Below, one piece after another: positions 9,836 to 62,713 of a stretch of 64,000 bases of DNA. The translations under genes and the position numbers were made by a program. Numbering within the stretch: the first letter of the stretch is position 1; the number at the start of each line of letters is the position of its first letter. Below the pieces are notes generated by a model. The model was not told the origin of the DNA and made no database searches. It saw nothing but the letters and a program-made list of their open reading frames with translations. Source of the stretch: an uncultured Dehalococcoidales bacterium (lineage in GTDB: Bacteria > Chloroflexota > Dehalococcoidia > GIF9 > AB-539-J10); contig CAZPGJ010000001.1 of the NCBI GenBank assembly GCA_964586515.1, positions 158,390-222,389 on the forward strand, in the 5' to 3' direction.

Positions 9836-11265
9836 ATAATGAAGCTATCTTTCTGCTTATCCGTGGCGGCCATATAATTGACCCCAGCCAGGGCATAGAC
9901 CAGGTTGGTGACTTGCTTATTGCTGAGGGCAAGGTTGTGCACTTGGGAGGCGAAATACCAACTGTCATTGCGAGTGACCTGCCCGCCTGCTCGCCGCACG
10001 ACTTCGGCAGGCGAGCCAAGGCTTGGCAGGCGGGAGCGAAGCAATCTCAAGCAATTGATGCCACTGGATTGATTGTCTGCCCCGGATTCGTAGACCTCCA
10101 CTGTCACCTCCGGGAGCCAGGTTTTGAGGATAAGGAAACAATCGCCACAGGGACAAAGGCAGCCGCCATAGGCGGCTTTGCCACTGTCTGCTGTATGCCG
10201 AATACCAATCCTCCCCTCGATAGCTCCTCTGTTCTAGACCTGGTGAAGAGAAATACGAGCAGGGAAAGCTTCATCACGGTTCTTCCCATAGGCTGCATTA
10301 GCAAAGGTAGGAAAGGCAAGGAATTGACCGATATGGCCAGGCTGGCAGAGGCCGGGGTGGTTGCTTTCAGCGACGATGGCGACCCAGTGAAAAGCTCACA
10401 GCTCCTGCGTCGTGCTATGGAACATAGCCGCGACCTGGGCCTGCCAATCATTGACCATTGCGAGGATAGAGCGCTGAGCGACAATGGAATCGTAAACGAA
10501 GGCCAGATATCTGCTAAGTTAGGTCTAAAAGGAATTCCTGCAGCCGCAGAAGAGGTCATTGTGGCGCGTGACTTGATTCTGGCAAAGTTGACCAGGGCCA
10601 GACTTCACATAGCCCATGTCAGCACCAGGGGCTCTGTAGAGCTTATTCGCCATGCCAAGGAAGAAGGGGGTTCAGTAACCGCTGAGGTTACACCCCACCA
10701 CCTGACTCTGACCGAGGACGCAATCACAGGCAGGTCTCACAATGACTCGCTTAATACTAACGCCAAGGTGAACCCACCTCTACGCACCAGCGAGGATATC
10801 GAAGCCTTAATCAGGGGACTCAATAACGGTGTAATCGATGCTATTGCCACCGACCACGCACCTCATACTCTGGCCGATAAAAATTGTGGGCCAGAGCTAG
10901 CCGCTTTTGGCATCAGCGGCTTTGAAACCGCTTTTGGCTGCCTCATGAGCCTGGTGCATGAAGGGAAAATAGACTTGACCATGCTGCTCTCCAAGCTCAC
11001 CTGTGAGCCAGCGAAAGTCATCAGTAGAAATGGTGAACTAGGCACCTTAAAGGCCGGCGCCCCGGCTAATATCAGCATACTCGACCCTGACCGGGAATGG
11101 ATAGTGGATAGCCGCAATTTTGCCTCTAAGGGCAAGAATACTCCTTACGATGGCTATAAGTTTAAGGGCAAGGTGATGGCAACCATAGCAAGCGGCAGGA
11201 TAGTTTACACTGATAACTCCCTTGTCATTGCGAGGAACAAAGTGACAAAGCAATCTCATGGCTAG
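9832..11265 (+). CDS. pyrC: Dihydroorotase carrying an in-frame ~85-bp palindromic repeat insertion near the N-terminus
   Basis: Amidohydrolase motifs (PGFVDLHCHLREPG, DHAPH). Residues ...VIASDLPACSPHDFGRRAKAWQAGAKQSQ... are encoded by the repeat at 9964-10048. Confidence 0.85.
   Translation: MNNEAIFLLIRGGHIIDPSQGIDQVGDLLIAEGKVVHLGGEIPTVIASDLPACSPHDFGRRAKAWQAGAKQSQAIDATGLIVCPGFVDLHCHLREPGFEDKETIATGTKAAAIGGFATVCCMPNTNPPLDSSSVLDLVKRNTSRESFITVLPIGCISKGRKGKELTDMARLAEAGVVAFSDDGDPVKSSQLLRRAMEHSRDLGLPIIDHCEDRALSDNGIVNEGQISAKLGLKGIPAAAEEVIVARDLILAKLTRARLHIAHVSTRGSVELIRHAKEEGGSVTAEVTPHHLTLTEDAITGRSHNDSLNTNAKVNPPLRTSEDIEALIRGLNNGVIDAIATDHAPHTLADKNCGPELAAFGISGFETAFGCLMSLVHEGKIDLTMLLSKLTCEPAKVISRNGELGTLKAGAPANISILDPDREWIVDSRNFASKGKNTPYDGYKFKGKVMATIASGRIVYTDNSLVIARNKVTKQSHG
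9964..10048 (+). repeat. Copy of the ~85-bp GC-rich structured repeat (GTCATTGCGAG...GCGAAGCAATCTC), in frame inside pyrC
   Basis: Near-identical to copies at 16497, 17207 and 26456 and to the inverted copy at ~34843. Internal complementary arms CCCGCCTGC/GCAGGCGGG and CTCGCC/GGCGAG. Confidence 0.85.
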
Positions 11266-23553: not shown

Positions 23554-24057
23554 TGTTTATTCAGGCAATTAAGACCCTTGCGTAGCAATCTGTACATCAA
23601 TATAATAGCATTTGTCAATATTTACGGCAAATTATTACTTGTCTTTAAGGGGTAGTTGCAGAATGATATATAAAAATAGCTCCCGGTGGTAGGACCCCAC
23701 GCCTGTACAGACGCTGCCATCTTCAGCAGATGACCAACCATTCCCCAGGAGCTTTTCTTACTACTATCAAAATTATAGTAAAATGTTATAGTATTGTCAA
23801 TATTTGATTGGCATTTGCAACGAGGTGGGGTTATGGATAAATTGAAAACCAATGTTTTGTATTATGGCTACAAGGTGATTCACGGGAACACCATGGTGTT
23901 TATCGTGAACAGTATGAAAACAAGTTTAAGGAGTATAAGTGAATAGTCATCTCATAGAAATCCTTGAGGACGAAGAACTCAAAGCTAGAATACAGAGGAA
24001 ATTGCCCTACTTATTTAACATTGCTGAGCTAGAAAGCTCCCGAGCAGGAAAAATTGG

Positions 24058-43278: not shown

Positions 43279-44203
43279 CAACGCCAATAAGGTCAGTGAG
43301 ATTCTCCACCCCCCTGTCCAGCATAAAATGCTCTATTCCCTCCAGTATAGTAAGACAGATATCAGGACTGGTCAGGTTAGCTGTGCCAATCTGTATAGCC
43401 GTAGCTCCAGCCATAATAAACTCCAAGGCGTCCTCAGCACAAGCAATGCCGCCACATCCTATCACTGGAATACGAACCACCTTGGCTGCTTCGAACACCA
43501 TATAAAGAGCCACAGGCTTGATAGCGGGACCAGAAAGCCCGCCTGCAATATTCCCCAAGCGTGACTTCCGTTGGTCTATATCAATTGCCATGCCCTTCAG
43601 CGTGTTAATCAGAGATATGGCATCAGCTCCAGCTTCTTCCACGGCTAAAGCGATTTCCTTAATATCGGTCACATTGGGGCTCAACTTAACGATAACCGGT
43701 AAGCTGGTAGCAGCTTTAACCGCCGAAGTTACCTGTGCGGCAAGCTTGGGGGCGACACCAAATTCCATCCCACCTGTGGGAACATTGGGGCAGCTGATAT
43801 TTAGCTCAATGCCGCTGACCCCGGGCACGCCTTCTAACTTGCCTGTCACAGCCACATATTCGTCTATTGTCTCCCCGGCAACATTAACAATAACAGGAAC
43901 CCGCCACCCTGCCCACACAGGCGCTTTTTCTTCAATCAGCGCGTCGACACCGATATTTTCCAAGCCTACCGAATTAAGCAGACCACTAGCGGTTTCCACC
44001 AGTCGTGGTTGGGCATTACCCTTTTTGGGCATAAGGGTCGTCCCTTTACAGACAATAGCGCCCAACTTTTGTATATCAGCAATTTCAGCATACTCTGTGC
44101 CATAGCCAGCTATGCCAGCGGCTATCATCACAGGATTAGATAAGATTAGTCCCTCAGGGTGCCGGGGGGCTAACTGCACGCAGAGGTTGGGTAAGTTTCT
44201 CAT
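43259..44203 (-). CDS. pyrD: Dihydroorotate dehydrogenase catalytic subunit (class 1B, PyrD)
   Basis: Class-1 DHODH motifs (NxxGLxN, catalytic Cys region NISCPN, FMN-binding [28 protein letters not shown]). Confidence 0.85.
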
Positions 44204-44348
44204 TGCTTAAAACTTTATCACTGCTCAGGGCAAAAAAGAAAGGACTAAATTAACCCAAAAAGTCTGGCGACTTTTTGGGTACCCTAAGTAAAATTTGATT
44301 CCAAATTAACGGGCCCCCACGAAAATCACAAGATTTTCATGGAGTGGT

Positions 44349-45086
44349 TTAACCAAGGGGCACAATTCTCACCCTGCCCCAGACGCCCATCTTGTCGCCT
44401 ACAATAATAACTACACCACGTAGCCCCTGGATACTCTGGGCTTTTTCAATTGCTTTAGGAATATCATCAGCAGCCTTGACTATATTGCCCAGCGCTGTGG
44501 CTGCAGCGTCAGCTAAAGCTGCCGAGGATGAAAGGGCAATAACGGCATCAGCGCTGCCCAGACTTAAAGAATGTCCTACGGTTCCTGAGGACGTACATAT
44601 GCCCAATGGTGTTTCTCGTGGCATGATTTCCAGGGCAAATTTTTTGGTAAAAGCGGATTGCCCGGCATAGATGCCCACCAGCCGCTTCTTAGATATTTTC
44701 AGAAAAATATCGCCACCATTCTCCACAATCACCTCCGGCGAGAAAGCGAGCAAATCCCTGCCTACTGCTTCAGCAATGGCGCCAGCTACCGCTGCCATAG
44801 GACCAACACCTGTTAATTGAGATACCCTGGCCATCTCCTTGACGATGGCCGGGGCTTCAGCTTCAGCTTCATAACTGTCCAACGTCGTCAGGAAAAGAGG
44901 ATGCCGCCCAATATATGCCTCTAGAGAGCCACGGTGCTTTAGCACGGAATCACGAGCTTTATTCCTTAGATTACGCCGGGAGCGGATGTATAGGTCTGTT
45001 TGCTTTACCGCTACCTCAAAAGAAACCAAATCGCTGTCTTTAATCCAGTGGCGGTAGAAACGTGGCTCATGCATGGTCAGATACAA
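44349..45086 (-). CDS. Conserved protein of the UPF0280/COG2122-like (ApbE-superfamily) type, which is associated with sulfide-dependent homocysteine biosynthesis in methanogens
   Basis: 245 aa with a glycine-rich pattern. Located in an apparent operon with the NIL-ferredoxin and COG1900 genes; family assignment is from memory of the pattern. Confidence 0.4.
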   Translation of the reverse strand: MYLTMHEPRFYRHWIKDSDLVSFEVAVKQTDLYIRSRRNLRNKARDSVLKHRGSLEAYIGRHPLFLTTLDSYEAEAEAPAIVKEMARVSQLTGVGPMAAVAGAIAEAVGRDLLAFSPEVIVENGGDIFLKISKKRLVGIYAGQSAFTKKFALEIMPRETPLGICTSSGTVGHSLSLGSADAVIALSSSAALADAAATALGNIVKAADDIPKAIEKAQSIQGLRGVVIIVGDKMGVWGRVRIVPLG

Positions 45087-45224
45087 AATCCTAATTTCTA
45101 ATCTCTAAATCCTAAACAAATTCCTTCAGAATGCAAAATGCAAAGTGACAGAGCAAAAGTCAAAAATTGTTGTATTTGGATTTGTCATTTTTATTTTTGA
45201 CCTTTGATTTTTGAATTTCAGTGG
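45087..45224 (+). repeat. AT-rich intergenic repeat (aaatcctaaacaaattcc; caaaatgcaaagtgacagagcaaaagtcaaaaat; ttgtcatttttatttttgacctttgatttttgaattt)
   Basis: An ~80-bp core homologous to 50385-50460; the aaatcctaaacaaattcc motif is identical to that at 47760. Confidence 0.6.
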
Positions 45225-45635
45225 TCAGAAATACAATATCATCGCCCGAGGAGGGCAAGCCTTGACACACAGTCCGCAGACAACACACTTATTATGGTCA
45301 AAGAGCACTTTCCTGGTTCTTGGCTCCAGAGCAAAAGCCTCGGCGGGGCAAATGGTGATACAAGCTCCGCAATGAGTGCACTTGGATTCGTCACGGACAA
45401 CATCCTGGCTTAAGGACTGGATTTCTACCCCACTCTCGGTGATGTATTTGATGCCCTCATCGTAGTTTTTCTGCTCACCGCTAAGCTCCATGACCAGCAA
45501 CCCTTCTTGTCCTGGTGATATTGAAGCTTTAATGATATTAAAGGTGAGGCCAAAATCCTTAACCAGGCGGCAAACGACTGGCTGCCCTGTCATATTGGGC
45601 GGGAAGTGAAGCACTATTCTTCGGGAGACATTCAT
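45225..45635 (-). CDS. NIL-domain / 4Fe-4S ferredoxin fusion protein (MA1822-type homocysteine-biosynthesis partner)
   Basis: N-terminal NIL domain (…FNIIKASI…) and two CxxCxxCxxxCP ferredoxin motifs (CTHCGACITICP, CVVCGLCVKACP). Confidence 0.7.
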   Translation of the reverse strand: MNVSRRIVLHFPPNMTGQPVVCRLVKDFGLTFNIIKASISPGQEGLLVMELSGEQKNYDEGIKYITESGVEIQSLSQDVVRDESKCTHCGACITICPAEAFALEPRTRKVLFDHNKCVVCGLCVKACPPRAMILYF

Positions 45636-45758
45636 CTCTATAAAATCCTAAACTATAAATAAATCCAAATATCAAAATCCAAATGACAAGTAAAGTCCAA
45701 ATGTCTAAATGCCAAAACCACTCCCCTTTATCATTTGAGCTTTGTCATTTGTCATTGT
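45636..45758 (+). repeat. AT-rich intergenic repeat (aaaatcctaaac; atcaaaatccaaatgacaag; tttgtcatttgtcattg)
   Basis: Shares motifs with the spacers at 45087 and 47752. Confidence 0.5.
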
Positions 45759-46964
45759 TCAAGATATTGGTCTTTCCTTAAGTGGCTTAAAGGTTATGCC
45801 TGATTCCACTCCAGGCAAGGCAGCCACGGGCTCGGTAAGCAAAAACTCACCCTTTTCTATCCACTTTTTCAAGATACTAGCAATTTCCACCGCTTTAGGA
45901 TAGCTAGACAAGGAAGCTGTGGGCACATCTTTGCCCTGAACCTTTATAAAACCGCTCTTGAGTTCAGCGTAGCTAACCTCTCCCAGGATATCTGGCTTCA
46001 TCTGGGGATAAGCCTCGGAATAGTCCACGATGGGAGCCAAGATGTCAGCATCGCCTACCATCGTATAGCGCAGAATCTCCTCGGAAAGTATGGGGATCGG
46101 GACACCTATGCCCACAGTTAATGTGCAGCCGTAACCGAGCATGCTTGTCCCGACCAGCCATTCCGGCTTCATCTGCTTTAAGTCCCCAATCACAGCCAGC
46201 GTCCCTGCTCCCCGCCGCGGCACACCATTGTCTCCCCTGAGAGCAGTGGGATTATGCTGCGTACCATGCCAGGCCACATAACCTACTCCGCCGCCCAAGA
46301 AAATCTTTGTCCCCACACCTATAGTCTTATAGTAGGGGTCGTTCAACAGCGGTGAGAGTTGCCCCGCTGTAGAGTAGTCAGCGTTCCCCAAATTCGGCTT
46401 AAGCACCCCCATATAGGTATAGATAACCTTATCGGAGAGGTTCACCGCCACATTATAGTTCTGGTAGGCATTTCTGAGATTAAATAGAATCGCCTCATTT
46501 ATGTCCTTAATGTTAATCAGGGTCTCCAGCTTTTTCCGGGGGTAGCAGTCCGTTCCAAAAGCGGTGGCGGTAAGTATTACGTCTTTCCCTGCTACCAGCT
46601 CCTCGATTACATGTCCCCCACCATAATTGAACTCCCCCGGATAGAACTTATTCCTGGGGTCATCATCGGGAAGAGCAGTGGCCCCGAGGAAAATATCCAC
46701 AGCAGCTATCCCGGTATAGACCGGAACATCATTAAGGTAAACCTTGCCGCCGCCAAGTTTTATCCTCGGCCTGGAGTGTCCAATATTGAAGAAGGCACCA
46801 GACCCGCACATGGGGCTGAAGGTGCCAGTGGTAACTACATCAATCTCCTCGGCCGCCTTGCTTACGCCTTTTTCCTTAGCGATGTTAATCACTTCCTCGG
46901 CAGTCACCACGACAGCCTTACCTTTTCTGATTTTCTCATTGATTTCAGTTATCGTCTTTGCCAT
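45759..46964 (-). CDS. DUF39/COG1900-family protein (MA1821-type sulfide-dependent homocysteine biosynthesis enzyme)
   Basis: 401 aa with DUF39-like conserved blocks (GTFSPMCGSGAFFN; GGGHVIEEL). Operon with the NIL-ferredoxin gene. Confidence 0.65.
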   Translation of the reverse strand: MAKTITEINEKIRKGKAVVVTAEEVINIAKEKGVSKAAEEIDVVTTGTFSPMCGSGAFFNIGHSRPRIKLGGGKVYLNDVPVYTGIAAVDIFLGATALPDDDPRNKFYPGEFNYGGGHVIEELVAGKDVILTATAFGTDCYPRKKLETLINIKDINEAILFNLRNAYQNYNVAVNLSDKVIYTYMGVLKPNLGNADYSTAGQLSPLLNDPYYKTIGVGTKIFLGGGVGYVAWHGTQHNPTALRGDNGVPRRGAGTLAVIGDLKQMKPEWLVGTSMLGYGCTLTVGIGVPIPILSEEILRYTMVGDADILAPIVDYSEAYPQMKPDILGEVSYAELKSGFIKVQGKDVPTASLSSYPKAVEIASILKKWIEKGEFLLTEPVAALPGVESGITFKPLKERPIS

Positions 46965-46977
46965 AGCAAATTTAACC

Positions 46978-47751
46978 TTATTTAAGCAACTCCATAGCTA
47001 CCCGGGCAGCCTTTTTACCGGATAAAAGCATGCCACCAAAAATGGCTCCCATCCTCGGGGAACCAAAAACGGCGTTCGCTGTCATACCAGCGACTACCAA
47101 CCCGGGATAGACTTCCCTGGTGTTTTTCAATATTTCTCTTTCCCCTCTTTCAGCCCACATGGACTTCTCTCCCATAACTTCCCCCGTCTTCGTCCTTAGC
47201 TTCGGCCCTATCTTCTTCACCACGATACGGCAGACTTCAGCGTCATGCCCGGTGGCATCTACAGCCACCTTGCACCTCACAGTTAGAGGGTCCACATGCA
47301 GCTTCGACCACGAAACAGCGCTCCAATTCAAAACAAGCCCGCTTATTCTGTCATCTTCCCGAACCATGACATCTTCAACGTTAATCAAATTGAAAATCTT
47401 CGCCCCTGCTTTTATAGCCCGTGAGCAGATAGTCGAAATGGCTTCCAGCGAATCAGCGACATAATACCCTTTTTCATATTCCTTAGCTGAAACTTCAAAT
47501 TCATCCAATACCCGCTTGCCTTTTTCCTGAAGGACGATGCGGTTAAACATCATCCCTCCCCCAGACATGCCGCCGCCCACACGAAGCTGCCTTTCGAATA
47601 CTATCACCTTTATTCCCTCTTTCGCCAGGTAGTATGCAGTAACAAGCCCAGCCGGCCCCGCCCCAGCTACAGCAACATCCACCTCCATCGCCCTCATGAG
47701 GTCCTTCATGTAGCTTTCAACAATGGCACGGGAAATAATAACTTCATCCAT
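46978..47751 (-). CDS. thi4: Thiazole synthase Thi4 (archaeal/eukaryotic type; FAD-binding)
   Basis: ORF 46978..47790. Dinucleotide-binding GAGPAGL and a Thi4 family pattern (VDATGHDAEV...PGLVVAGM). Start could be 47790 or the internal Met at 47751. Confidence 0.75.
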   Translation of the reverse strand: MDEVIISRAIVESYMKDLMRAMEVDVAVAGAGPAGLVTAYYLAKEGIKVIVFERQLRVGGGMSGGGMMFNRIVLQEKGKRVLDEFEVSAKEYEKGYYVADSLEAISTICSRAIKAGAKIFNLINVEDVMVREDDRISGLVLNWSAVSWSKLHVDPLTVRCKVAVDATGHDAEVCRIVVKKIGPKLRTKTGEVMGEKSMWAERGEREILKNTREVYPGLVVAGMTANAVFGSPRMGAIFGGMLLSGKKAARVAMELLK

Positions 47752-47890
47752 AATCCTAAATCCTAAACAAATTCCAAATCCTAATTCCAAAATTCAAAAT
47801 CTTCTTGTTTCGGGTATTTGAGTTTTGATGAGAGGAATTAAATTTTTCCTTTCTTTTGTTTAGTATTTCGTATTTAGTGCTTAGAATTTT
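47752..47890 (+). repeat. AT-rich intergenic repeat (taatcctaaatcctaaacaaattccaaatcctaattccaaaattcaaaat...)
   Basis: The aaatcctaaacaaattcc block is identical to that at 45100. Confidence 0.5.
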
Positions 47891-47994
47891 CTCCCTTAGT
47901 TGACCTCACTTTAGCTACTGAAGCGGCGGTTTGGAAGAGGTGCTAGCCAGTATACCTCTATTGGCCAGCAATGTCTAGTCATTTGGGGTTTTTG

Positions 47995-48116
47995 TCAATG
48001 CGAGCCCTTTCTCTTTCGTCATTGCGGGCCCCGACTTATCGGGGTGTGGCAATCTCTGGGATTGCGGAGCCTGTTCCGAAGCATAAGCGAGGAAGCTCGT
48101 CAGCCTCGCAATGACA
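47995..48116 (+). repeat. Compound TIR element: GTCAATGCGAG...GTCATTGCGGG...GGCAATCTC...CTCGCAATGAC
   Basis: Terminal inverted motifs of the GTCATTGCGAG family with an internal degenerate copy. Confidence 0.6.
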
Positions 48117-48207
48117 AGAGGCAGGTGGTTAAAAAATAGCGGTGCCCCAAGCTAACTCAGGAACACCCCGGGCCTATCAATAGGCTACGGCCATTGCCCT
48201 GGGTGCT

Positions 48208-49788
48208 TTAAGGCTTGTGGTGGTTGATTACGTTCTGCGGTATTACGAGGGGCTTCGTGCCGTTGTACGCAAAGTTCCAGCAGCCGTACTGGTCAGTCAA
48301 CGCCTTGTCGTATTCGTCTCCGAAATACATCGGCCAGACGCCGACTTTCTTCCACTGACCAGCCGTTGCATCCCACTGCCACTGCGCGCCAATGCCAGTC
48401 AAGCGGCCAGGACCATAAACCAGGTCATGAGTGGTGTGTGGTGGCATTGTCCAGTCCTTCGCGTCATACGTATAAGTAGTATTATAACTACCAAGGTCGT
48501 ACAGTGAGCCTACTTGAGCCTCTGTCAGTGCCGGTTTCCCGGCAGCCGTAGTTCCCGGCCTGGGATAATAGGTGGTCAAGCCAGTCGTGGTTACCTGAGC
48601 GTTTGCCGGGCCTTCCAGCCACTTAATAATGTCATCAGCCCGTGCATATGCAGTTCCGTTAACCGCGTTGTACCATGCCACTGCTTCGATGGCCGCTTTC
48701 AGACCAAAAAGCGCATCATAGGTAGCCGCGGTATCGAGTGGGTACTCTCCTCCAGAAGCGGTCATGAACGCAGAAAGGAAAGCTGCTGTCTTCGAGGTCT
48801 GGTTTAAGCCTTCCGCCCAGGTATCCAGTACAACCTCATAAGCACAAGCAGGGCCACCAGGGGGGGCTGCGGTAAGGTTGCCGGCACCCCAAGGGCTCTT
48901 AAGCTGGGCCATTACGTTAAAGCCTACCGACATAGCATTCGGTACATAAGATGCACGCAGTTTATCATAGAGAACGCCAGCATTCGCGGAGAATACAGGG
49001 ATGATAAACTCGGGATCTAAGCCTGCTATCGAGGTCAGCACACTCTGCATTTCCGCCGTGTTTCCCGTTGCATCCACCCAATATGGGTCGTGGACAAGAG
49101 TCACGTTTATACCCCCTAGCAGTCCCTCAATATCTACTACTTGCTCATAGGCCCAGGGCAAATTGTCAGCGACTATGGTGGCATTCAACGTACAATTAGC
49201 CGCTACTCCCATTTTCTCCCTGAGCTTTATTGCGACCGCTCCCAGTATCCTCACAAGGCTCTGGCTTGAAAAATACTCGTTGTACGGCGTGCCCTTGAAC
49301 CAGAACCGGTAGCCCGGGTAATCGTCGACTACGCTGTGCTGGAGCGCCTCGGCGGCAACACCACAGTCGATGAAAATCACCCCCTTCTCCATAGCCACAT
49401 TGCGGTAGACCTCAACGGCTTTTGTCTGTAAACCCCCGAGGATGAAGTCCACGTCATCGTCGTCTATCGCTGTCGTAAGAGCCGATACGCCAGTGAGACC
49501 AGCAGGGTCCACGGTCTCTTCACCGGTCTCTATGGGAACCAACTCCAAGATATAGGACACGCCGCCTATGTCTACCCCGCCATTGCGGTTGATTGCATCC
49601 TGTGCCAGCGTGGCACCTGTCCATTGCATCGCGCCAGCTGTGCAGTTCTGGTCGCCAGCTATACCGATATCAATTTTCCCACCTCGGAAGGCATAGAGTA
49701 CTGGCTCGAGTTTCTCTGCACTACAGCCCGGGAGTGCCAACCCTATCACCAAAAGACTGGCCATAATCAGGAAAACAATTTTTTTCAC
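48208..49788 (-). CDS. Solute-binding lipoprotein of an ABC transporter (type I periplasmic binding fold, LivJ-like); signal peptide with lipobox LPGCS
   Basis: N-terminal MKKIVFLIMASLLVIGLALPGCS, a large PBP1-like body, and no adjacent permease or ATPase genes. Confidence 0.6.
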   Translation of the reverse strand: MKKIVFLIMASLLVIGLALPGCSAEKLEPVLYAFRGGKIDIGIAGDQNCTAGAMQWTGATLAQDAINRNGGVDIGGVSYILELVPIETGEETVDPAGLTGVSALTTAIDDDDVDFILGGLQTKAVEVYRNVAMEKGVIFIDCGVAAEALQHSVVDDYPGYRFWFKGTPYNEYFSSQSLVRILGAVAIKLREKMGVAANCTLNATIVADNLPWAYEQVVDIEGLLGGINVTLVHDPYWVDATGNTAEMQSVLTSIAGLDPEFIIPVFSANAGVLYDKLRASYVPNAMSVGFNVMAQLKSPWGAGNLTAAPPGGPACAYEVVLDTWAEGLNQTSKTAAFLSAFMTASGGEYPLDTAATYDALFGLKAAIEAVAWYNAVNGTAYARADDIIKWLEGPANAQVTTTGLTTYYPRPGTTAAGKPALTEAQVGSLYDLGSYNTTYTYDAKDWTMPPHTTHDLVYGPGRLTGIGAQWQWDATAGQWKKVGVWPMYFGDEYDKALTDQYGCWNFAYNGTKPLVIPQNVINHHKP

Positions 49789-49989
49789 TGCACATCAATT
49801 TCCTTTTTAGCTTGTAGTTGCTTGATTCATTAAGCTAACCACTGGTGCTGGAAGAAACTGGTCAACAACCAGTTACTTCCAGCAACTTAATCCTTATACA
49901 CTATATCACAAAACTATCTCCTTCTTTACCTCTGGTCTCCAGATTCTTGTAGTTGCCTGATTTACCAGCCAGGCCCCGCCCGATTTTTT

Positions 49990-50066
49990 GTCATTGCGAG
50001 CGAAGCGTGGCACTTTCATTAACCCTTCCATGAGATTGCTTCGGCTGACTTCGTCAGCCTCGCAAC
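49990..50066 (+). repeat. TIR element copy (GTCATTGCGAGCGAAGCGTGGCA...GATTGCTTCGGCTGACTTCGTCAGCCTCGCAA)
   Basis: Carries the family termini plus an internal palindrome GGCTGAC-ttc-GTCAGCC. Confidence 0.65.
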
Positions 50067-50193
50067 AACAGAAGAGGTTATCAATGCAAAAACCAATTAA
50101 ATCATAACATTTAAATATTAAGATTCTATTAAATTTAGGGGGATGTGACATCTTTTTATAGCGGCTGGAGAGGAAAGAGAATCTCCACTCCCC

Positions 50194-50346
50194 CGTCATT
50201 GCGGGCCCTTTGCCTTTTGTCATTCTGAGCCGAAGGCGAAGAATCTCACTTCTTCTCAGGCATGTCCTGAGCGAAGTCGAAGGAGTAAACTCCGCGTGGC
50301 AATCCTCCGGAATTGCTTCGGCTGACTTCGTCAGCCCCGCAATGAC
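50194..50346 (+). repeat. Nested compound TIR element (outer GTCATTGCGGG...CCCGCAATGAC; inner GTCATTCTGAGCCGAAGGCGAAGAATCTCA and ...GGCAATCC...GATTGCTTCGGCTGACTTCGTCAGCC)
   Basis: Read directly. It is the second unit of a tandem pair with 49990-50066. Confidence 0.65.
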
Positions 50347-50379
50347 AGAAGGGGGGTTGTCAATGCAAAATGCAAAACT

Positions 50380-50470
50380 AAAGGTGCAAAACGACGGAGC
50401 AAAGGTTAAATGCTTTGCGTTTTGAGTTGTCATTTTGATTTTTGACCTCTAACTTTTGAATTGTAACATC
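50380..50470 (+). repeat. AT-rich repeat copy (caaaatgcaaaactaaaggtgcaaaacgacggagcaaaggt...gtcattttgatttttgacctctaacttttgaatt), homologous to 45120-45220
   Basis: About 80 bp alignable with the copy upstream of the NIL-ferredoxin gene. Confidence 0.6.
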
Positions 50471-53744: not shown

Positions 53745-54548
53745 ATGGAGTTTTCAGAAATATCCGAAAAACAGGTTACGAAGGCGATCATATCAGAGTT
53801 CAGCAGGGAATTTGAGGATTACATCGAAACCGATGTAATCGTAGTAGGTGCTGGACCTAGCGGGCTTATTGCCTCAAAGGAACTCGCAGAGAAGGGCGTA
53901 AAAACGCTCCTTATCGAGAGCAACAACTATCTCGGTGGAGGCTTTTGGATCGGCGGCTATCTAATGAACAAGATAACACTGAGGGCTCCGGCTCAGGGGA
54001 TTCTGAATGAAATTGGAGTCCCATATAAAGAGGCGGAAGAGGGATTGTATGTGGCAAATGGACCACACGCATGCTCTAAATTAATTGCCGCAGCTTGTGA
54101 CGCCGGCGTTAAGGTATTAAGCATGACCAAGTTCGATGATGTGATGATAAGGGAGAAGCGCGTCTGTGGGGTAGTCATCAACTGGACACCTGTATCGGCA
54201 CTTCCAAGGGCGATCACCTGCGTCGACCCAATTGGTATGGAATCAAAACTCGTCATCGATGCCACGGGACATGATGCTGTGGTTGTTCATTCACTCGCGA
54301 AGCGAGGTCTGGTGAATATCAAAGGATTCAGTGGCATGTGGGTTGCAAAATCAGAGGACGTGGTCGTTGAGTATACAAAAGAGGTATACCCGGGCCTGAT
54401 TGTAGCAGGAATGGCAGTTGCCACCACATTTGGTCTTCCTAGGATGGGTCCAACTTTTGGCGCCATGCTCTTCTCAGGAAGGAGGGCTGCAAAAGCTGCC
54501 TTGGAGCTTTTATCAAAGGGACAGTCTTTAGTCGGCATTACCTCTTGA
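53745..54548 (+). CDS. Thi4-like protein (second paralog of thiazole synthase / ribose-1,5-bisphosphate-isomerase family)
   Basis: GAGPSGL dinucleotide motif and [10 protein letters not shown]...PGLIVAGM, parallel to the thi4 at 46978. Confidence 0.65.
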
Positions 54549-56552: not shown

Positions 56553-57791
56553 GTGGCCTTAAAGGAGGAAGATTTGTCCTATGCTATAGCCTTGCGCTGC
56601 CGGAAGTGTGGGCGAGAGTATCCGTTGGAGCCTCTCAATCTATGTGACTTTTGCTTCAGTCCGTTAGAGGTAAACTACGACTATAAGTCTATAGCTAAAG
56701 CGGTAAGTCGGGAAAAGATTCTCGAGGGGCTGCCAAGCATGTGGCGCTACAGAGACTTGCTGCCTGTAGATGGCGATGTAGTGGATATTGGCACGGGATT
56801 CACTCCTCTTGTTAAGGCTGATAACCTGGGGCAGGAACTGGGGTTGGAGAAGCTTTATATCAAAAATGACTGCCTTAACCCAACGTACTCCTTCAAGGAT
56901 CGGGTGGTCTCGGTAGCTATCACCAAGGCACGAGAATTTGGATTTGATACCGTGGCTTGTGCCTCAACAGGCAATCTGGCTGCTAGCGTGGCGGCTCATG
57001 CTGCCAAAGCAAATATAAAGTCCTATGTTTTCGTTCCCTCTGATGTGGAACCAGGTAAGCTGACAGGAATAGCAATCTATAACCCAGTTCTGGTGACAAT
57101 TAAGGGAAACTACGACGATGTCAACCGCCTCTGTAGCCAGATAGCGCAGAGATATAACTGGGGGTTCATCAACATTAATCTCCGACCCTACTATGCTGAG
57201 GGGAGCAAGACCCTGGGTTATGAAGTAGCTGAACAACTGGGGTGGCATGCCCCTGATTGTGTAGTGGCCCCCGCTGCCTCGGGGCTCCTCTTTACCAGGA
57301 TATGGAAAGGCCTGGACGAGCTTTCTATGCTGGGTTTAATTCAACCGATCAATACTCACATGTATCTTACCCAGGCTGCGGGTTGTTCTCCCATTGTCAA
57401 TGCTTTTGAGGCAGGTATTCACCATGTGCACCCAGTGAAACCAAATACCATCGCCAAGTCTATAGCTATTGGGAACCCGGCTGATGGCTATTATGCGTTG
57501 AGGGTTGCCCGGCAGTCAGGGGGCAGTGCCTGTGCTGTCACCGATGAAGAGGTGGTTGAGGGGATGAAGCTGCTGGCCGAGACTGAAGGCATTTTTGCCG
57601 AGACAGCTGGAGGTGTGGTAATAGCGGGGTTGCGGAAGCTAGTGACCTCGGGGATAATTAAGAGGAATGAGCTTACGGTGGTTTTCATTACCGGGGCAGG
57701 ACTGAAAACCCAGGAAGTGATAGCTGAGGGGGTTCATCCCCTCGTAATCCAGCCCACCTTGGAATCCTTCGAGGAAATTTTTGGTAAGTGA
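56553..57791 (+). CDS. thrC: Threonine-synthase-like PLP enzyme with N-terminal zinc-ribbon (CxxC...CxxC)
   Basis: CRKCGREY...CDFC followed by the fold-type-II PLP motif SFKDR. Specificity (Thr synthase versus a sulfhydrylase-type relative) cannot be resolved from sequence alone. Confidence 0.6.
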   Translation: MALKEEDLSYAIALRCRKCGREYPLEPLNLCDFCFSPLEVNYDYKSIAKAVSREKILEGLPSMWRYRDLLPVDGDVVDIGTGFTPLVKADNLGQELGLEKLYIKNDCLNPTYSFKDRVVSVAITKAREFGFDTVACASTGNLAASVAAHAAKANIKSYVFVPSDVEPGKLTGIAIYNPVLVTIKGNYDDVNRLCSQIAQRYNWGFININLRPYYAEGSKTLGYEVAEQLGWHAPDCVVAPAASGLLFTRIWKGLDELSMLGLIQPINTHMYLTQAAGCSPIVNAFEAGIHHVHPVKPNTIAKSIAIGNPADGYYALRVARQSGGSACAVTDEEVVEGMKLLAETEGIFAETAGGVVIAGLRKLVTSGIIKRNELTVVFITGAGLKTQEVIAEGVHPLVIQPTLESFEEIFGK

Positions 57792-57857
57792 GCTTGAGTC
57801 TTTAATGTTCCACTCGTGTTATAATTTTAACTTTAGAAAAAATATCAGGAGGACAAG

Positions 57858-58100
57858 ATGGTCAAGCGAGGAGTAAAGTTCACCTTTCCACCGGAATTGA
57901 TTAAGGAGCCCATCATTTACAATCTCGGTCAACAGTTTAAGGTAGTGACCAATATCCGACGCGCTGATGTAAATGGAGACAAGGGCTGGGTAGTTCTTGA
58001 ATTGGAGGGGGAAGGAGAAGATATCGAGCGTGGAATTGCTTGGGTGACTGGCAAAGGGGTAAGGGTTGATCCCGTTGTCGGAGATATTGTAGAGGGTTAG
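57858..58100 (+). CDS. Stand-alone NIL-domain protein (80 aa)
   Basis: …QFKVVTNIRRADVNGDKGWVVLELEGEGEDIERGIAWV… parallels the N-terminal domain of the NIL-ferredoxin at 45225. Confidence 0.5.
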   Translation: MVKRGVKFTFPPELIKEPIIYNLGQQFKVVTNIRRADVNGDKGWVVLELEGEGEDIERGIAWVTGKGVRVDPVVGDIVEG

Positions 58101-59261
58101 ATGCGAAGGATATATCTTGACCACGCTGCCACCACGCCAACACATCCCGAGGTAGTGAAGGCCATGCTGCCTTATTTTACCGATGCCTTTGGCAATCCTT
58201 CGAGCATCTATTCTTACGGGCAAGAAGCGAAGGGGGCCGTAGAAGAGGCCAGAACTAGGGTGGCGGAACTTATTGGCGCTCGGAGCGAGGAGATTATTTT
58301 TACCAGCGGGGGAACGGAGGCGGATAACTATGCCTTAGAGGGCGTTGCCTATGCTAATGAGCGTAAAGGGAATCACATCATCACCACCTCCATTGAGCAC
58401 CATGCGGTGATGGAGGTGTGCAAGTTTCTGGAGAGAAGGGGATTCAGGATAACCCGCCTGCCGGTGGATAAATATGGCCTGGTTGACCCTGATGATGTCA
58501 AGAGAGCTATTACCGATAAAACCATCCTTATCTCAGTCATGCATGCCAACAACCAGGTAGGCACGATAGAGCCTGTGGAAGAAATAGGTAAAATTGCCAG
58601 AGAGGCAGGGGTCTATTTTCACACCGATGCCGTGCAAACGGTGGGGCATATCCCGGTGAATGTGGATAAACTTAAGGTAGACTTGCTCTCCATTGCAGCG
58701 CATAAGTTCTACGGACCTAAAGGAGTGGGGGCGCTGTATGTCAGGAAAGGCACCAGGTTAGTTTCCCTTATGCATGGGGGAGAGCAGGAAAAGAGGCGCA
58801 GGGCTGGTACCGAAAATGTTCCTGCTATCGTGGGGCTTGGCAAGGCGGTGGAGCTTGCCGGGCAGGAGATGGGCAAAGAAGCAGAACGGCTGGCTTATCT
58901 TCGGGATAAGCTAATTAAAGGTCTCTTGGAGAAGATTGACCACATCCGCTTAAATGGTCATCCCACGAGAAGGCTGCCCAACAATGTCAATGTAAGCGTT
59001 GATTTTGTGGAAGGGGAATCCATGCTTTTAAATCTTGATTTAGAGGGCATCTGTGCTTCTACCGGCTCAGCCTGTAGCTCGGCAATCCTTGAACCGTCCC
59101 ATGTTCTTCTGGCGCTGGGGCTTCCCCCCGAGCAAGCTCATGGCTCGCTCAGGTTTACCTTGGGGCGAGAGAATACCGAGGAAGACGTAGAGCGAGTTTT
59201 GGATGTCCTGCCCAGAGTTGCCGCCAAGCTCAGAGCGATGTCGCCACTGTTGAGAGGATAG
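58101..59261 (+). CDS. iscS: Cysteine desulfurase (NifS/IscS family)
   Basis: PLP-lysine HKFYGPKG, active-site cysteine loop SSGSACSS. Confidence 0.85.
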   Translation: MRRIYLDHAATTPTHPEVVKAMLPYFTDAFGNPSSIYSYGQEAKGAVEEARTRVAELIGARSEEIIFTSGGTEADNYALEGVAYANERKGNHIITTSIEHHAVMEVCKFLERRGFRITRLPVDKYGLVDPDDVKRAITDKTILISVMHANNQVGTIEPVEEIGKIAREAGVYFHTDAVQTVGHIPVNVDKLKVDLLSIAAHKFYGPKGVGALYVRKGTRLVSLMHGGEQEKRRRAGTENVPAIVGLGKAVELAGQEMGKEAERLAYLRDKLIKGLLEKIDHIRLNGHPTRRLPNNVNVSVDFVEGESMLLNLDLEGICASTGSACSSAILEPSHVLLALGLPPEQAHGSLRFTLGRENTEEDVERVLDVLPRVAAKLRAMSPLLRG

Positions 59262-59322: not shown

Positions 59323-59952
59323 ATGACATTAAAGAGGCGCGTCAGACTGGTGATTCTGCCAATTGTGGGGGTCTTAGTGATTTTGGGCATCGCGATGGTA
59401 CTGTTGAACCACTTCAACGGCCCTCCCCAACAGCAAGGACTTGATCCGACCCCGCAGATCTGGAGCGAAATTATCCCTGAAGAAGGGACAGTGACCGGTT
59501 ACGGCACCTCGCTGTCTCTTGAGAACACGCAACAGTTCATTGATTGGTACAATTCCATAGAGCTATCCACCAAGGAGCAAGCAATCCGGGATACGGCTCT
59601 GGGTTCACTGGTGGCTCCATGCTGTGATGAGTACCCGATGAGCACCTGCTGCTGTGAATGCAACCTCGCCCGCAGTGTATGGGGATTATCGGCTTATCTA
59701 ATCGCTGAGAAGGATTATGGAGTGAACCAAGTCCAGGAGGCCGCCTCTCAATGGCTCCATTTCATTCGCCCCGATTACTATGTGGGAAGGGCGCTTGAGC
59801 AGGAAGGAATTGACCCAGGACTGTGGGGATTCACTACAGAAAGCTCGTGCGCTGCAGGTCACTGTGACCGTCCTTTCTATACCGAGACGTCATCTGGTCA
59901 CCTTGGTGGTTGTGGGGGGATGGAGGAGCTCATCCAAGTTGAACTAAACTAG
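59323..59952 (+). CDS. Hypothetical membrane-anchored cysteine-rich protein (209 aa) between iscS and iscU
   Basis: N-terminal TM helix (LVILPIVGVLVILGIAMVLL); Cys cluster APCCDEYPMSTCCCECNLARS plus CAAGHCD and GGCGG. Confidence 0.5.
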   Translation: MTLKRRVRLVILPIVGVLVILGIAMVLLNHFNGPPQQQGLDPTPQIWSEIIPEEGTVTGYGTSLSLENTQQFIDWYNSIELSTKEQAIRDTALGSLVAPCCDEYPMSTCCCECNLARSVWGLSAYLIAEKDYGVNQVQEAASQWLHFIRPDYYVGRALEQEGIDPGLWGFTTESSCAAGHCDRPFYTETSSGHLGGCGGMEELIQVELN

Positions 59953-60563: not shown

Positions 60564-60600
60564 ATATGAATTATAATTCATATAAATGGAGATTCATATG
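60564..60600 (+). promoter_or_regulatory. Putative ArsR operator: 20-bp perfect palindrome ATATGAATTA|TAATTCATAT (60564-60583) plus a third half-site ATTCATATG overlapping the arsR start
   Basis: Perfect inverted repeat read from the sequence, immediately upstream of and overlapping the arsR start codons (ATG 60586 and 60598). Confidence 0.5.
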
Positions 60601-60912
60601 CCAATAGAGGAAGGCCAGGCAAGGTTTCTGAGGTGCATCGGAGAGCCGACGAGACTCCAGATACTCAAGGTGCTGGCGGAGGGCGAGAGGTGCGTTGGCG
60701 AACTCGCCTATGTTTTGAGTAAGGAGCAATCTCTGATTTCACACCACCTGAGAGCCCTTAAGGAATGCAACATTGTGAAAGAGAGGCAGGAAGCTCAGAA
60801 AGTTTACTACAAGCTTACGGATGCTAGATTAGCCAGGTTAATTATTGATAGCGAAGCTCTAATGAAGGAGCTATCGCTATGCAAATGTCAGGAGGTGAAT
60901 TATGAAAGATAA
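60586..60912 (+). CDS. arsR: ArsR/SmtB-family metalloregulator
   Basis: wHTH with the metal-binding motif ERCVGELA and family helix LISHHLRALKE. Confidence 0.8.
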   Translation: MEIHMPIEEGQARFLRCIGEPTRLQILKVLAEGERCVGELAYVLSKEQSLISHHLRALKECNIVKERQEAQKVYYKLTDARLARLIIDSEALMKELSLCKCQEVNYER

Positions 60913-61660
60913 GGAAATCAAGGAAGTGGTGAAGGGGAGATATGCTCAGATAGCTAGGCAAGACCAAGAGAGCTGCTGCCCAAGTTGTTCTGGCGGGGCC
61001 AGCTCCTTGTTGCAAGCTAAGGGTACCGAGTACTTGAGAGAGGATTTGGAACATGTTCCGGAAGAGGCGATTATGGGGTTGGGATGTGGTAACCCCGCCG
61101 CCATAGCAGACCTCAAAGCGGGTGAGATAGTCCTGGATTTAGGGTCGGGAGCTGGTGTAGATGTGTTCCTGGCAGCTAATAAAGTTGGTCCGACTGGCAA
61201 GGTTATCGGGGTTGATATGACGGAGGAGATGGTAGATAAGGCAGAAGAAATCGCCAGGAATTATGGCTACCATAACGTGGAATTCCACCTAGGGGAAATT
61301 GAGAGCCTCCCAGTCGAGGATGAGTCTGTGGATGCGATTATCAGCAACTGCGTCATCAATCTCTCGCCGGATAAATCTAAGGTCTTCCAGGAAGCTTACC
61401 GAGCCTTGAAGCCCAGGGGCAGGCTCACAGTCTCTGATATTGTCTCCGAAAGAGCGCTCCCCAATGAGATAAAGACTGACTCGAACGCCTGGGCATGTTG
61501 TATCGGCGGGGCATTGGAGCAGCAGGAATACTTGGAAAAGATAAAGAAAGCTGGCTTTGAGGATGTAGAGATAGTATCAAGCCGGGAATTTTATATAGAG
61601 AACAAAGCAAACCAGACGCAAGAGAAGCTTCTGAGCATCACGGTAAAGACATATAAGTGA
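60902..61660 (+). CDS. arsM: Arsenite S-adenosylmethionine methyltransferase (ArsM/AS3MT-like)
   Basis: Conserved Cys (CCPSC, LGCG), SAM motif VLDLGSGAG, and a C-terminal WACCIGG. Confidence 0.7.
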   Translation: MKDKEIKEVVKGRYAQIARQDQESCCPSCSGGASSLLQAKGTEYLREDLEHVPEEAIMGLGCGNPAAIADLKAGEIVLDLGSGAGVDVFLAANKVGPTGKVIGVDMTEEMVDKAEEIARNYGYHNVEFHLGEIESLPVEDESVDAIISNCVINLSPDKSKVFQEAYRALKPRGRLTVSDIVSERALPNEIKTDSNAWACCIGGALEQQEYLEKIKKAGFEDVEIVSSREFYIENKANQTQEKLLSITVKTYK

Positions 61661-61714
61661 GAAACCAGGCGGCAATATAGCCAGCCACGGCTTCAATCTG
61701 TCGGAGGTGGATAG

Positions 61715-62713
61715 TTGGTAATCCAGTATCTCATAGTATTCAAGGATTATCTCATTGAGATATTGCCCTTCCTGGCAATAGGGTTCCTACTGAGTGGCTT
61801 AATTCACGAATTTGTCCCTTCAAACTGGGTGGAGAGACGCCTCGGTGGACGAGGTTTGAAGCCAATCCTTTACTCCACCCTTATCGGGACAATCCTTCCC
61901 ATCTGCTGTTTCGGCTCCCTCCCGGTGGCGGTGAGCCTGCACCAGAAAGGGGCAAGGTTAGGACCAGTTCTAGCTTTCCTGGTCGCAACGCCAGCTACCT
62001 CCATAACCGCCCTTCTCGTCACCTATGGTCTCCTGGGATTAAAGTTCACCATATTCATCTTCTTTGCCGTGATAGCCATGGGTTTAGTCATGGGGCTGGT
62101 AGGAAATCTCATCAAGGTCAGACCTAAGGTTTTTACTCTTCAAGAGCAACAGGCTCTCGACCCGGTTTGTGGGATGAGTGTCGAGGTAGGGAAAGCGGCT
62201 AAGGCAGAATGTGGCGGAGAGACGTATTACTTTTGCTGTTCCCACTGCCAGCAGGCCTTTGAGGATAATCCAAAGGAGTATATAGGAGCTTATTCTCGGA
62301 ATGTTGCTCACAGAGTAAAGCATGTGTTCAGATATGCCTTTGTGGATATGGTCAAGGATATCGGGCCGGAGTTGCTTCTGGGTCTGGCTCTGGCGGCTTT
62401 GGTAGCAGCGGTGGTTCCGGTGGGGAAGTTCGTTGGTGCTTATCTCAGTGGGGGACTGGGGTATCTTTTCAGCCTTGGCTTTGGCTTAATCATGTATATC
62501 TGCTCCACAGCCAGCGTTCCCCTGGTCCACGCCTTCGTGTCGCAGGGAATGAATATCGGCGCCGGAATGGTGCTCCTGTTGGTGGGCCCCATTACCAGTT
62601 GGGGCACTATCCTGGTCCTGAGAAAGGAATTCAGTGGCAGGACCCTGGCTATTTATCTGGCGGTCGTCAGCGTAATGTCTCTGGCTCTGGGCTACTGCTT
62701 CTCGCTGATATAG
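61715..62713 (+). CDS. Permease of the DUF318/ArsP-like family with an inserted YHS/TRASH-type metal-binding domain
   Basis: Multi-TM protein with LPICCFGS and a cytosolic loop CGMSVEVGKAAKAECGGETYYFCCSHCQQAFEDNP (the YHS pattern). Downstream of arsR-arsM. Confidence 0.55.
   Translation: MVIQYLIVFKDYLIEILPFLAIGFLLSGLIHEFVPSNWVERRLGGRGLKPILYSTLIGTILPICCFGSLPVAVSLHQKGARLGPVLAFLVATPATSITALLVTYGLLGLKFTIFIFFAVIAMGLVMGLVGNLIKVRPKVFTLQEQQALDPVCGMSVEVGKAAKAECGGETYYFCCSHCQQAFEDNPKEYIGAYSRNVAHRVKHVFRYAFVDMVKDIGPELLLGLALAALVAAVVPVGKFVGAYLSGGLGYLFSLGFGLIMYICSTASVPLVHAFVSQGMNIGAGMVLLLVGPITSWGTILVLRKEFSGRTLAIYLAVVSVMSLALGYCFSLI

Follow-up and report, generated by a model that had tools for sequence, protein, structure and literature searches.

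Described systems and the locus studied here

Homocysteine synthesis from free sulfide has been studied genetically in Desulfovibrio and Methanosarcina, and we compare these systems here with a four-gene locus (Thi4, DUF39, NIL-ferredoxin and COG2122) in a 64-kb stretch of DNA from an uncultured Dehalococcoidales bacterium. This whole stretch (contig CAZPGJ010000001.1, positions 158,390 to 222,389) is called the window, and all coordinates are positions in it. In Desulfovibrio vulgaris, DUF39, NIL/ferredoxin and COG2122 are each required for homocysteine synthesis, their mutants being methionine auxotrophs, while homoserine is not an intermediate of the pathway and homoserine dehydrogenase is not needed (PMC5764234). 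Kuehl et al. (2014) found homocysteine synthesis to depend on DUF39 (Dde_3007), named DET0921 as its ortholog and pointed out that a ferredoxin and COG2122 are frequent neighbours of DUF39; in the reading of Price et al. (2018), the pathway 'encoded by DET0921:DET0919' appears to serve Dehalococcoides (PMC5764234). In Methanosarcina acetivorans, MA1821/MA1822 is L-aspartate semialdehyde sulfurtransferase (abbreviated L-ASST), MA1715 (COG2122) is a sulfur-trafficking helper and a methionine-sensing role is likely for the NIL domain (PMC12068725). Cys54, essential in MA1821, and Cys131 are the nearly universal cysteines of the COG1900a enzymes (PMC12068725). On the whole, the trio of DUF39, NIL-ferredoxin and COG2122 and its co-localisation in this class of bacteria are already published, and the system is already annotated in public databases.

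In Dehalococcoides mccartyi (ethenogenes) 195, a member of the same class, the same three genes (DET0921-DET0919) are contiguous and co-oriented as in the window, and DUF39 of a D. mccartyi locus (L036 in our set) is ~82% identical to the window protein; both Kuehl et al. (2014) and Price et al. (2018) put these genes forward as the way in which this organism makes homocysteine. The D. mccartyi locus examined has no Thi4 directly upstream, its only Thi4-like match being 39% identical and ~2 kb away, whereas the window operon has Thi4 as its first gene and long repeat insertions in three spacers. The same three families are genetically proven in Desulfovibrio vulgaris Miyazaki F (DvMF_1464/DvMF_0262/DvMF_0044) and D. 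alaskensis (Dde_3007), and Dde_3007 is without a CBS domain, as is the window DUF39; the D. vulgaris genes are scattered, judging from their locus tags, while those of the window form one predicted operon. With M. acetivorans MA1821, MA1822 and MA1715 the window shares the COG1900a cysteine pair, the NIL and ferredoxin partner and the COG2122 helper. The archaeal COG1900 subunit differs from the 401-aa window protein in its C-terminal CBS pair for S-adenosylmethionine (SAM) sensing, and MA1715 is dispensable at high sulfide, COG2122 being needed in M. acetivorans at low sulfide only (PMC5764234).

A predicted operon of four genes

Based on profile searches and the literature on orthologs, the locus is very probably a four-gene operon that groups two biosynthetic steps fed by free sulfide, namely the synthesis of homocysteine and that of thiamin thiazole. 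Both lines support the sulfide-dependent homocysteine locus proposed in the initial annotation of this DNA. Gene identities, key residues, gene order and conservation are direct observations. All four open reading frames (ORFs) are found at the positions given in that annotation, on the minus strand, and the adjacency and common orientation of the trio and Thi4 stand as well. What does not stand is the description of Thi4 as following the trio: reading the ORFs along 44349-47751, the genes run head to tail as Thi4, DUF39, NIL-ferredoxin and COG2122, so that Thi4 comes first when the locus is transcribed, its stop codon lying 13 nt before the DUF39 start. Gene calls on the identical public contig agree with the Thi4 start at 47751 and with sizes of 257, 401 and 136 aa. 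For COG2122, the longest ORF extends from a TTG at 45086 (44349-45086, 245 aa), and we prefer the ATG at 45074 because close homologs are nearly all 241 aa long. The best matches come from uncultured Dehalococcoidia, and the closest public relative, the metagenome-assembled genome CSMAG_2721 (JAUWYX01), has a DUF39 that is 96% identical. The coordinates of the operon and of the other features discussed below are collected in Table 1.

Table 1. Positions of the operon genes, their flanking and intergenic elements, and other features of the window
Feature	Position	Strand	Remarks
Thi4	46978-47751	-	257 aa; ATG at 47751
DUF39/COG1900a	45759-46964	-	401 aa
NIL + 2x[4Fe-4S] ferredoxin	45225-45635	-	136 aa
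COG2122/UPF0280 (ApbE superfamily)	44349-45074	-	241 aa from ATG at 45074
Putative promoter TAGACA-17 nt-TATACT	47949-47977	-	only sigma-70-like match in 44000-48400
Thi4 leader insertion, ~140 nt	47752-47893	-	palindromic repeat, four TTWGGAWTT copies
DUF39-NIL-ferredoxin spacer, 123 nt	45636-45758	-	palindromic repeat, three TTWGGAWTT copies
NIL-ferredoxin-COG2122 spacer, 150 nt	45075-45224	-	repeat sequence, including 20-nt copy of a Thi4-leader segment
Hairpin, 12 bp, then U-rich tract	44253-44281	-	~70 nt after COG2122 stop codon
Second Thi4 (Cys-type by donor residue)	53745-54548	+	between CysK and CysE
ThrC-like gene and NIL-only gene	56553-58100	+	
Second NIL protein (the NIL-only gene)	57858-58100	+	80 aa; PF09383
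Cys-rich protein	59323-59952	+	209 aa; between NifS and NifU
ArsR-type regulator, SAM methyltransferase, ArsP-type permease	60586-62713	+	between NifU and ThiF
ORF with repeat copies	49906-50433		175 aa; looks spurious
DUF3800-VII RNA	23670-23756	-	48.5 bits; gathering score 36.2

The DUF39 protein matches PF01837 HcyBio over the entire profile (positions 1-349 of 349, residues 17-376, 508.5 bits, E 1e-152), which bears out the family named in the initial annotation, and its close homologs carry the public names 'homocysteine biosynthesis protein' or 'L-aspartate semialdehyde sulfurtransferase'. Neither profile search nor alignment finds a CBS domain in it, and a sequence search returned no solved DUF39 structure. 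Cys53 (SPMCGSG) is kept in 80 of 80 Dehalococcoidia relatives and Cys140 (GTDCYP) in 79 of 80; in a wide alignment built from representatives of 50%-identity clusters, the L-ASST-like members have both as well, including a 504-aa CBS-bearing protein of archaeal type. The two residues are equivalent to Cys54 and Cys131 of MA1821, with a numbering offset due to a ~14-residue insertion in the bacterial proteins. By analogy with MA1821, DUF39 is supported as the predicted catalytic subunit of L-ASST. The COG1900 family is nevertheless multi-functional, L-ASST itself may moonlight in coenzyme M (CoM) synthesis (PMC12068725), and the activity of the Dehalococcoidia members is assigned by sequence only; DUF39 and NIL-ferredoxin might then convert another aldehyde to a thiol instead of making homocysteine, like the COG1900 paralog MMP16 for CoM. 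We consider this very improbable. The MMP16/CoM-synthase model TIGR03287 gives the window protein 124.2 bits, far under its cut-off of 363.95, and the profile search finds no Fer4 match, so that no ferredoxin domain is inserted into COG1900; on these tests the protein lies outside the MMP16/ComF subfamily. In addition, both COG1900a cysteines are present, and the genus of the similar D. mccartyi homolog grows on minimal medium with the trio as its only proposed homocysteine route.

The second member of the predicted L-ASST, NIL-ferredoxin, has a PF09383 NIL domain (residues 5-72) followed by Fer4 families (residues 79-131), where two full CxxCxxCxxxCP motifs (C86/C89/C92/C96 and C117/C120/C123/C127) are read from the sequence. 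It is supported, again by analogy, as the predicted electron-donor and regulatory subunit.

COG2122 is recognised by the NCBIfam equivalog NF003323 (PRK04334.1-3, UPF0280 group) with 309.9 bits against a cut-off of 271, so that the 245-aa ORF product, like the 401-aa protein, belongs to the family expected for it and not to an unrelated one. Homologs 86-93% identical carry a precomputed PF27030 match and the name 'ApbE superfamily uncharacterized protein (UPF0280 family)', and PDB 2o34, a structural-genomics entry deposited as 'hypothetical protein' and the only solved COG2122 relative, matches with E 5.1e-41. The assignment rests on these three sources because our local Pfam copy gives no family at E <= 0.01 for this protein, ApbE included. 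Two more specific identities were tried for it and dropped: an ApbE flavin transferase, for which the ApbE family model gives no match, and a protein defined by a conserved persulfide cysteine, since the candidate residue Cys160 aligns with a Cys in 2o34 yet is Gly in 12 of 69 relatives.

Thi4 scores 290.7 bits with PF01946 and 328 bits, against a cut-off of 148.3, with TIGR00292 'sulfide-dependent adenosine diphosphate thiazole synthase'. Its His152 (KLHVDP) aligns with the active-site His of archaeal 4y4m and 4y4n (Methanocaldococcus and Methanotorris enzymes), in the column that holds the sulfur-donor Cys of Arabidopsis THI1 (SCMDPN), as placed via the alignment of the paralog discussed below. 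By this residue the protein is a predicted catalytic, sulfide-dependent, His-type adenosine diphosphate (ADP)-thiazole synthase (EC 2.4.2.59), in accordance with the sulfide-using type supposed for it earlier. It resembles the catalytic, non-suicide Thi4 proteins of Thermovibrio ammonificans and Methanocaldococcus (7rk0, 4y4m, 4y4n) over its full length, with E values from 4.6e-86 (7rk0, the best solved relative) to 3e-69, has His in place of the eukaryotic donor Cys and keeps the DATGHDA motif. The genomic setting is different, Thi4 being the first gene of a homocysteine operon here.

Proposed function

Taking the chemistry from the orthologs, Thi4 would make ADP-thiazole from NAD+, glycine and sulfide, while DUF39 and NIL-ferredoxin would together act as L-ASST and convert aspartate-4-semialdehyde, sulfide and two electrons to L-homocysteine, with homoserine not an intermediate. 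The DUF39/COG1900a subunit would add sulfur to aspartate-4-semialdehyde, with Cys53, the counterpart of the essential cysteine, probably acting through a persulfide, and the two [4Fe-4S] clusters of NIL-ferredoxin would give two electrons for the reduction of the intermediate to L-homocysteine. Methionine is probably sensed by the NIL domain, and COG2122 would help deliver or activate sulfide for the homocysteine reaction. As far as co-transcription can be judged from the DNA, one transcript most likely runs from the putative promoter upstream of Thi4 to the hairpin after COG2122, the long GGA-rich spacers within it being secondary insertions of a generic palindromic repeat. Co-expression of two sulfide-dependent enzymes would be the simplest reason for the linkage of Thi4 with the trio. 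If the assignments hold, sulfide is the direct sulfur source for the homocysteine, hence methionine, and the thiamin thiazole of the organism, as one would expect of a strictly anaerobic bacterium. The finding is ordinary for the group and matters little beyond correct annotation.

Several points weigh against this proposal. The operon is known in this organism from sequence alone and its chemistry by analogy. The role of COG2122 is unsettled in the model organisms, since D. vulgaris requires it and M. acetivorans can do without it when sulfide is high (PMC5764234), and a persulfide-carrier model on its Cys160 is doubtful because of the Gly found there in part of the relatives. Internal promoters or processing sites missed by a simple scan could be present in the spacers of 123 and 150 nt. 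Finally, the trio may not be the sole homocysteine route, because a Cys/Met-family PLP enzyme, a ThrC-like enzyme and a ThiF/ThiS pair are likewise encoded in the window; among the scanned ORFs of at least 180 aa within the window, none is metX/metA/metY, hom, asd or metE/metH.

Conservation and synteny in Dehalococcoidia

We then examined 80 species-representative genome loci, all Dehalococcoidia-like and with DUF39 78-96% identical to the window protein, of which 73 could be assessed for the contiguity of the trio and 75 for the placement of Thi4. Overall, 69 of the 73 loci have DUF39, NIL-ferredoxin and COG2122 side by side in one orientation, and the NIL-ferredoxin gene adjoins DUF39 in 72. 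The co-localisation of the full trio, which the initial annotation had singled out as notable, is therefore not so, being the rule in relatives and already described for Dehalococcoides in 2014 and 2018. In 47 of the 75 loci the gene directly upstream of DUF39 is Thi4, with His at the donor position in every case. The loci without Thi4 at this place mostly have a DUF39 of 78-82% identity, together with a few nearer relatives of up to ~85%. The median intergenic gaps in relatives, 12 nt for Thi4-DUF39, 12.5 nt for DUF39-NIL-ferredoxin and 30 nt for NIL-ferredoxin-COG2122, point to a compact ancestral operon. The clade-level operon with a His-type Thi4 upstream of the trio is the sole new point found, and it is a modest addition, anticipated by a 2026 survey in which HcyBio recurs in the neighbourhood of Cys-type Thi4 genes (PMC13325395).

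The linkage may be read in another way, with Thi4 as a second client of the same sulfide machinery, such that COG2122, and perhaps NIL-ferredoxin, serves thiazole and homocysteine synthesis alike in one sulfide-assimilation module. That Thi4 and L-ASST are both sulfide users, that Thi4 in most of the 47 loci is separated from the following DUF39 by 7-13 nt and is always of the His type, and that HcyBio recurs beside Thi4 genes in the survey just cited are all in keeping with this; on the other side, free sulfide is the sulfur donor of catalytic Thi4s in the literature, 28 of the 75 Dehalococcoidia loci have the trio but no Thi4, in Desulfovibrio and methanogens the trio is in use with no Thi4 linked to it, and co-regulation according to how much sulfide or iron is available accounts for the linkage just as well. 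We thus judge such a shared module to be unlikely, a dependence of Thi4 on COG2122 being possible but unsupported. Equally doubtful is its evolutionary form, in which a His-type Thi4 was recruited to the homocysteine operon in a large Dehalococcoidia clade on account of the sulfide-delivery machinery it shares with L-ASST (COG2122, possibly with the electrons or the regulation of NIL-ferredoxin). If such recruitment did take place, COG2122 would be a general chaperone for free-sulfide-dependent enzymes and not a homocysteine-specific factor. The linkage of Thi4 with the trio offers a natural system for asking whether COG2122 serves more than one such enzyme. As a separate observation, in three loci of more distant Dehalococcoidia (L025, L042 and L078), a CysK-like C-terminus seems to be encoded just upstream of the His-type Thi4, as judged by eye from the nucleotides; if this is true, a cysteine synthase gene stands in one row with Thi4 and the homocysteine trio in these loci.

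Promoter, terminator and intergenic repeats

The promoter-like block upstream of Thi4 is conserved in close relatives. At the other end, the hairpin after COG2122 has a folding energy of -20.5 kcal/mol with z -4.1, none of 200 shuffles folding as well, and it may act as a terminator or stabilise the end of the mRNA; a consensus terminator scan does not call it.

Between these two ends, the leaders of Thi4, NIL-ferredoxin and COG2122 are occupied by GGA-rich repeats. The repeat in the Thi4 leader has a 5' arm rich in A/C and a 3' arm rich in GGA/U that reaches the start codon, and folds into an imperfect hairpin of -25.1 kcal/mol (z -1.8); the DUF39-NIL-ferredoxin spacer folds into a hairpin of -24.1 kcal/mol (z -1.8). 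Two of the three leaders thus fold as long imperfect hairpins with the 3' arm ending at the start codon, and folding of the three against shuffled sequences (z -1.8, -1.8 and 0.0) is marginally better or no better. The 20-mer GGAATTTGTTTAGGATTTAG occurs exactly, within the window, at 45105-45124 and 47756-47775 only, and 10 of the 13 window copies of TTWGGAWTT fall in the three operon leaders or spacers, against 3.8 copies expected in the whole window. The 3' arm of the leader repeats is also seen to supply an AGGA just before each start codon.

These features might suggest a dedicated cis-regulatory RNA coupling the translation of the operon to sulfur status, either a CsrA-type array or a new riboswitch: the ten TTWGGAWTT sites are all on the sense strand, two leaders have an exact 20-mer in common, the 3' arm holds an AGGA serving as ribosome-binding site, and similar elements stand at the same junctions in several other species. 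The distribution of the repeat speaks strongly against it. The elements are missing in most orthologous operons, where the gaps are 0-16 nt; in most relatives the Thi4 leader insertion is absent and a ribosome-binding site lies directly before the ATG. In other species the same junctions hold unrelated palindromic repeat families. The 18-mer core of the leader repeat, AATTTGTTTAGGATTTAG, is found on at least 120 metagenome contigs beside unrelated genes (argG, ftsZ, holA, pilC-like), and none of the 80 such contigs fetched encodes Thi4, DUF39, NIL-ferredoxin or COG2122. Folding is marginal, as given above, and no riboswitch or other Rfam family is found in the operon region, at the gathering score or at E <= 1. 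We therefore reject a sulfur-specific regulatory RNA, which the repeat distribution has already largely refuted and which retains hardly any credibility. Judging from their sequence and distribution, the GGA-rich spacers are generic palindromic intergenic repeats, similar to MITE or REP elements, that have landed repeatedly in the operon junctions, and the leader repeat looks like a mobile element of this kind able to replace a gene's native ribosome-binding region. The 18-mer core is apparently present in several phyla.

A second small repeat family with the core CTCGCAATGAC (…GATTGCTTCG…CTCGCAATGAC…) has 18 sites in the window against ~1 expected by chance, for example at 9964, 11224, 16497, 17006, 17207, 26456, 34033, 34056, 40373, 40445, 47994-48115 and 49990-50346. 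The sites are mostly located at gene boundaries, and several copies lie in the 175-aa ORF of Table 1. In several related species this family fills the NIL-ferredoxin-to-COG2122 spacer.

A second sulfur block with a Cys-type Thi4

Besides the operon, the window has a second sulfur block on the plus strand at 52-64 kb. It begins with an Rrf2/CymR-like regulator, CysK, a second Thi4, CysE and a Cys/Met-family PLP enzyme that stays below every NCBIfam subfamily cut-off, continues with a ThrC-like protein, an 80-aa NIL protein, NifS, a Cys-rich protein and NifU, and ends with ArsR, a methyltransferase, an ArsP/YHS permease, ThiF and a ThiS-like protein ending in GG. On a related contig the sequence continues past the block with a MOSC protein. 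Both the second Thi4-like gene and the second NIL-domain protein reported earlier from this region prove to be real; the NIL protein is 32% identical to the NIL half of NIL-ferredoxin.

The two Thi4 proteins of the window are 39% identical to each other and their genes lie ~6 kb apart. Inspection of the donor position, for which the initial annotation had pointed to the catalytic Cys, gives one His (catalytic) type, in the operon, and one Cys type, in the block: Cys159 (ITCVDP) of the second protein aligns with the Cys of Arabidopsis THI1 (1rp0) and is kept in homologs that belong to Chloroflexota, Methanophagales, Planctomycetota and Methanobacterium. By its donor residue the second Thi4 is thus of the Cys or 'suicide' type (EC 2.4.2.60). 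Cys-type Thi4 genes clustering with sulfur-relay genes have been described by Oliveira-Filho et al. (2026, PMC13325395), and the block resembles those clusters in the donor Cys and in the CysK, CysE, NifS, NifU, ThiF and ThiS neighbours, with MOSC next on the related contig; it differs in that a Cys-type and a His-type Thi4 coexist 6 kb apart in one genome, which may be of interest for the question why 'suicide' Thi4s persist in anaerobes. Beyond a small Dehalococcoidia group, the nearest relatives of the second Thi4, at 75-80% identity, belong to Methanophagales, Planctomycetota, Sedimentisphaerales and Methanobacterium, a spread which suggests either very strong conservation or lateral transfer.

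The ThrC-like protein, which has an N-terminal Cys4 ribbon, passes the NCBIfam threonine synthase cut-offs. Its pairing with the NIL-only gene was considered as a counterpart of Streptomyces MetM/MetO and found wrong for NIL, as MetO is a ThiS-type sulfur carrier and not a NIL protein. A MetM-like thiocarboxylate route to homocysteine via the ThrC-like protein is still conceivable from the gene content, with ThiF and the ThiS-like protein ending in GG 5 kb downstream. Within 56553-59261, the stop of the NIL gene abuts the start of NifS (58100/58101), and the order of a PALP-type ThrC-like gene, NIL and a NifS-sized gene recurs among five near-identical contigs (L202-L206) where the contig reaches far enough.

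As for the remaining genes of the block, the 209-aa Cys-rich protein has an N-terminal membrane anchor and dense Cys clusters (…APCCDEYPMSTCCCECN…, …CAAGHC…GGCGG…), matches no Pfam family and is kept at the same place on contig L202. In the segment between NifU and ThiF, the SAM methyltransferase belongs to Methyltransf_31 and has N-terminal CC/CxxC motifs, and the ArsP-type permease carries a YHS domain. Elsewhere in the window, the DUF3800-VII RNA listed in Table 1 is the only Rfam match that reaches its gathering score.

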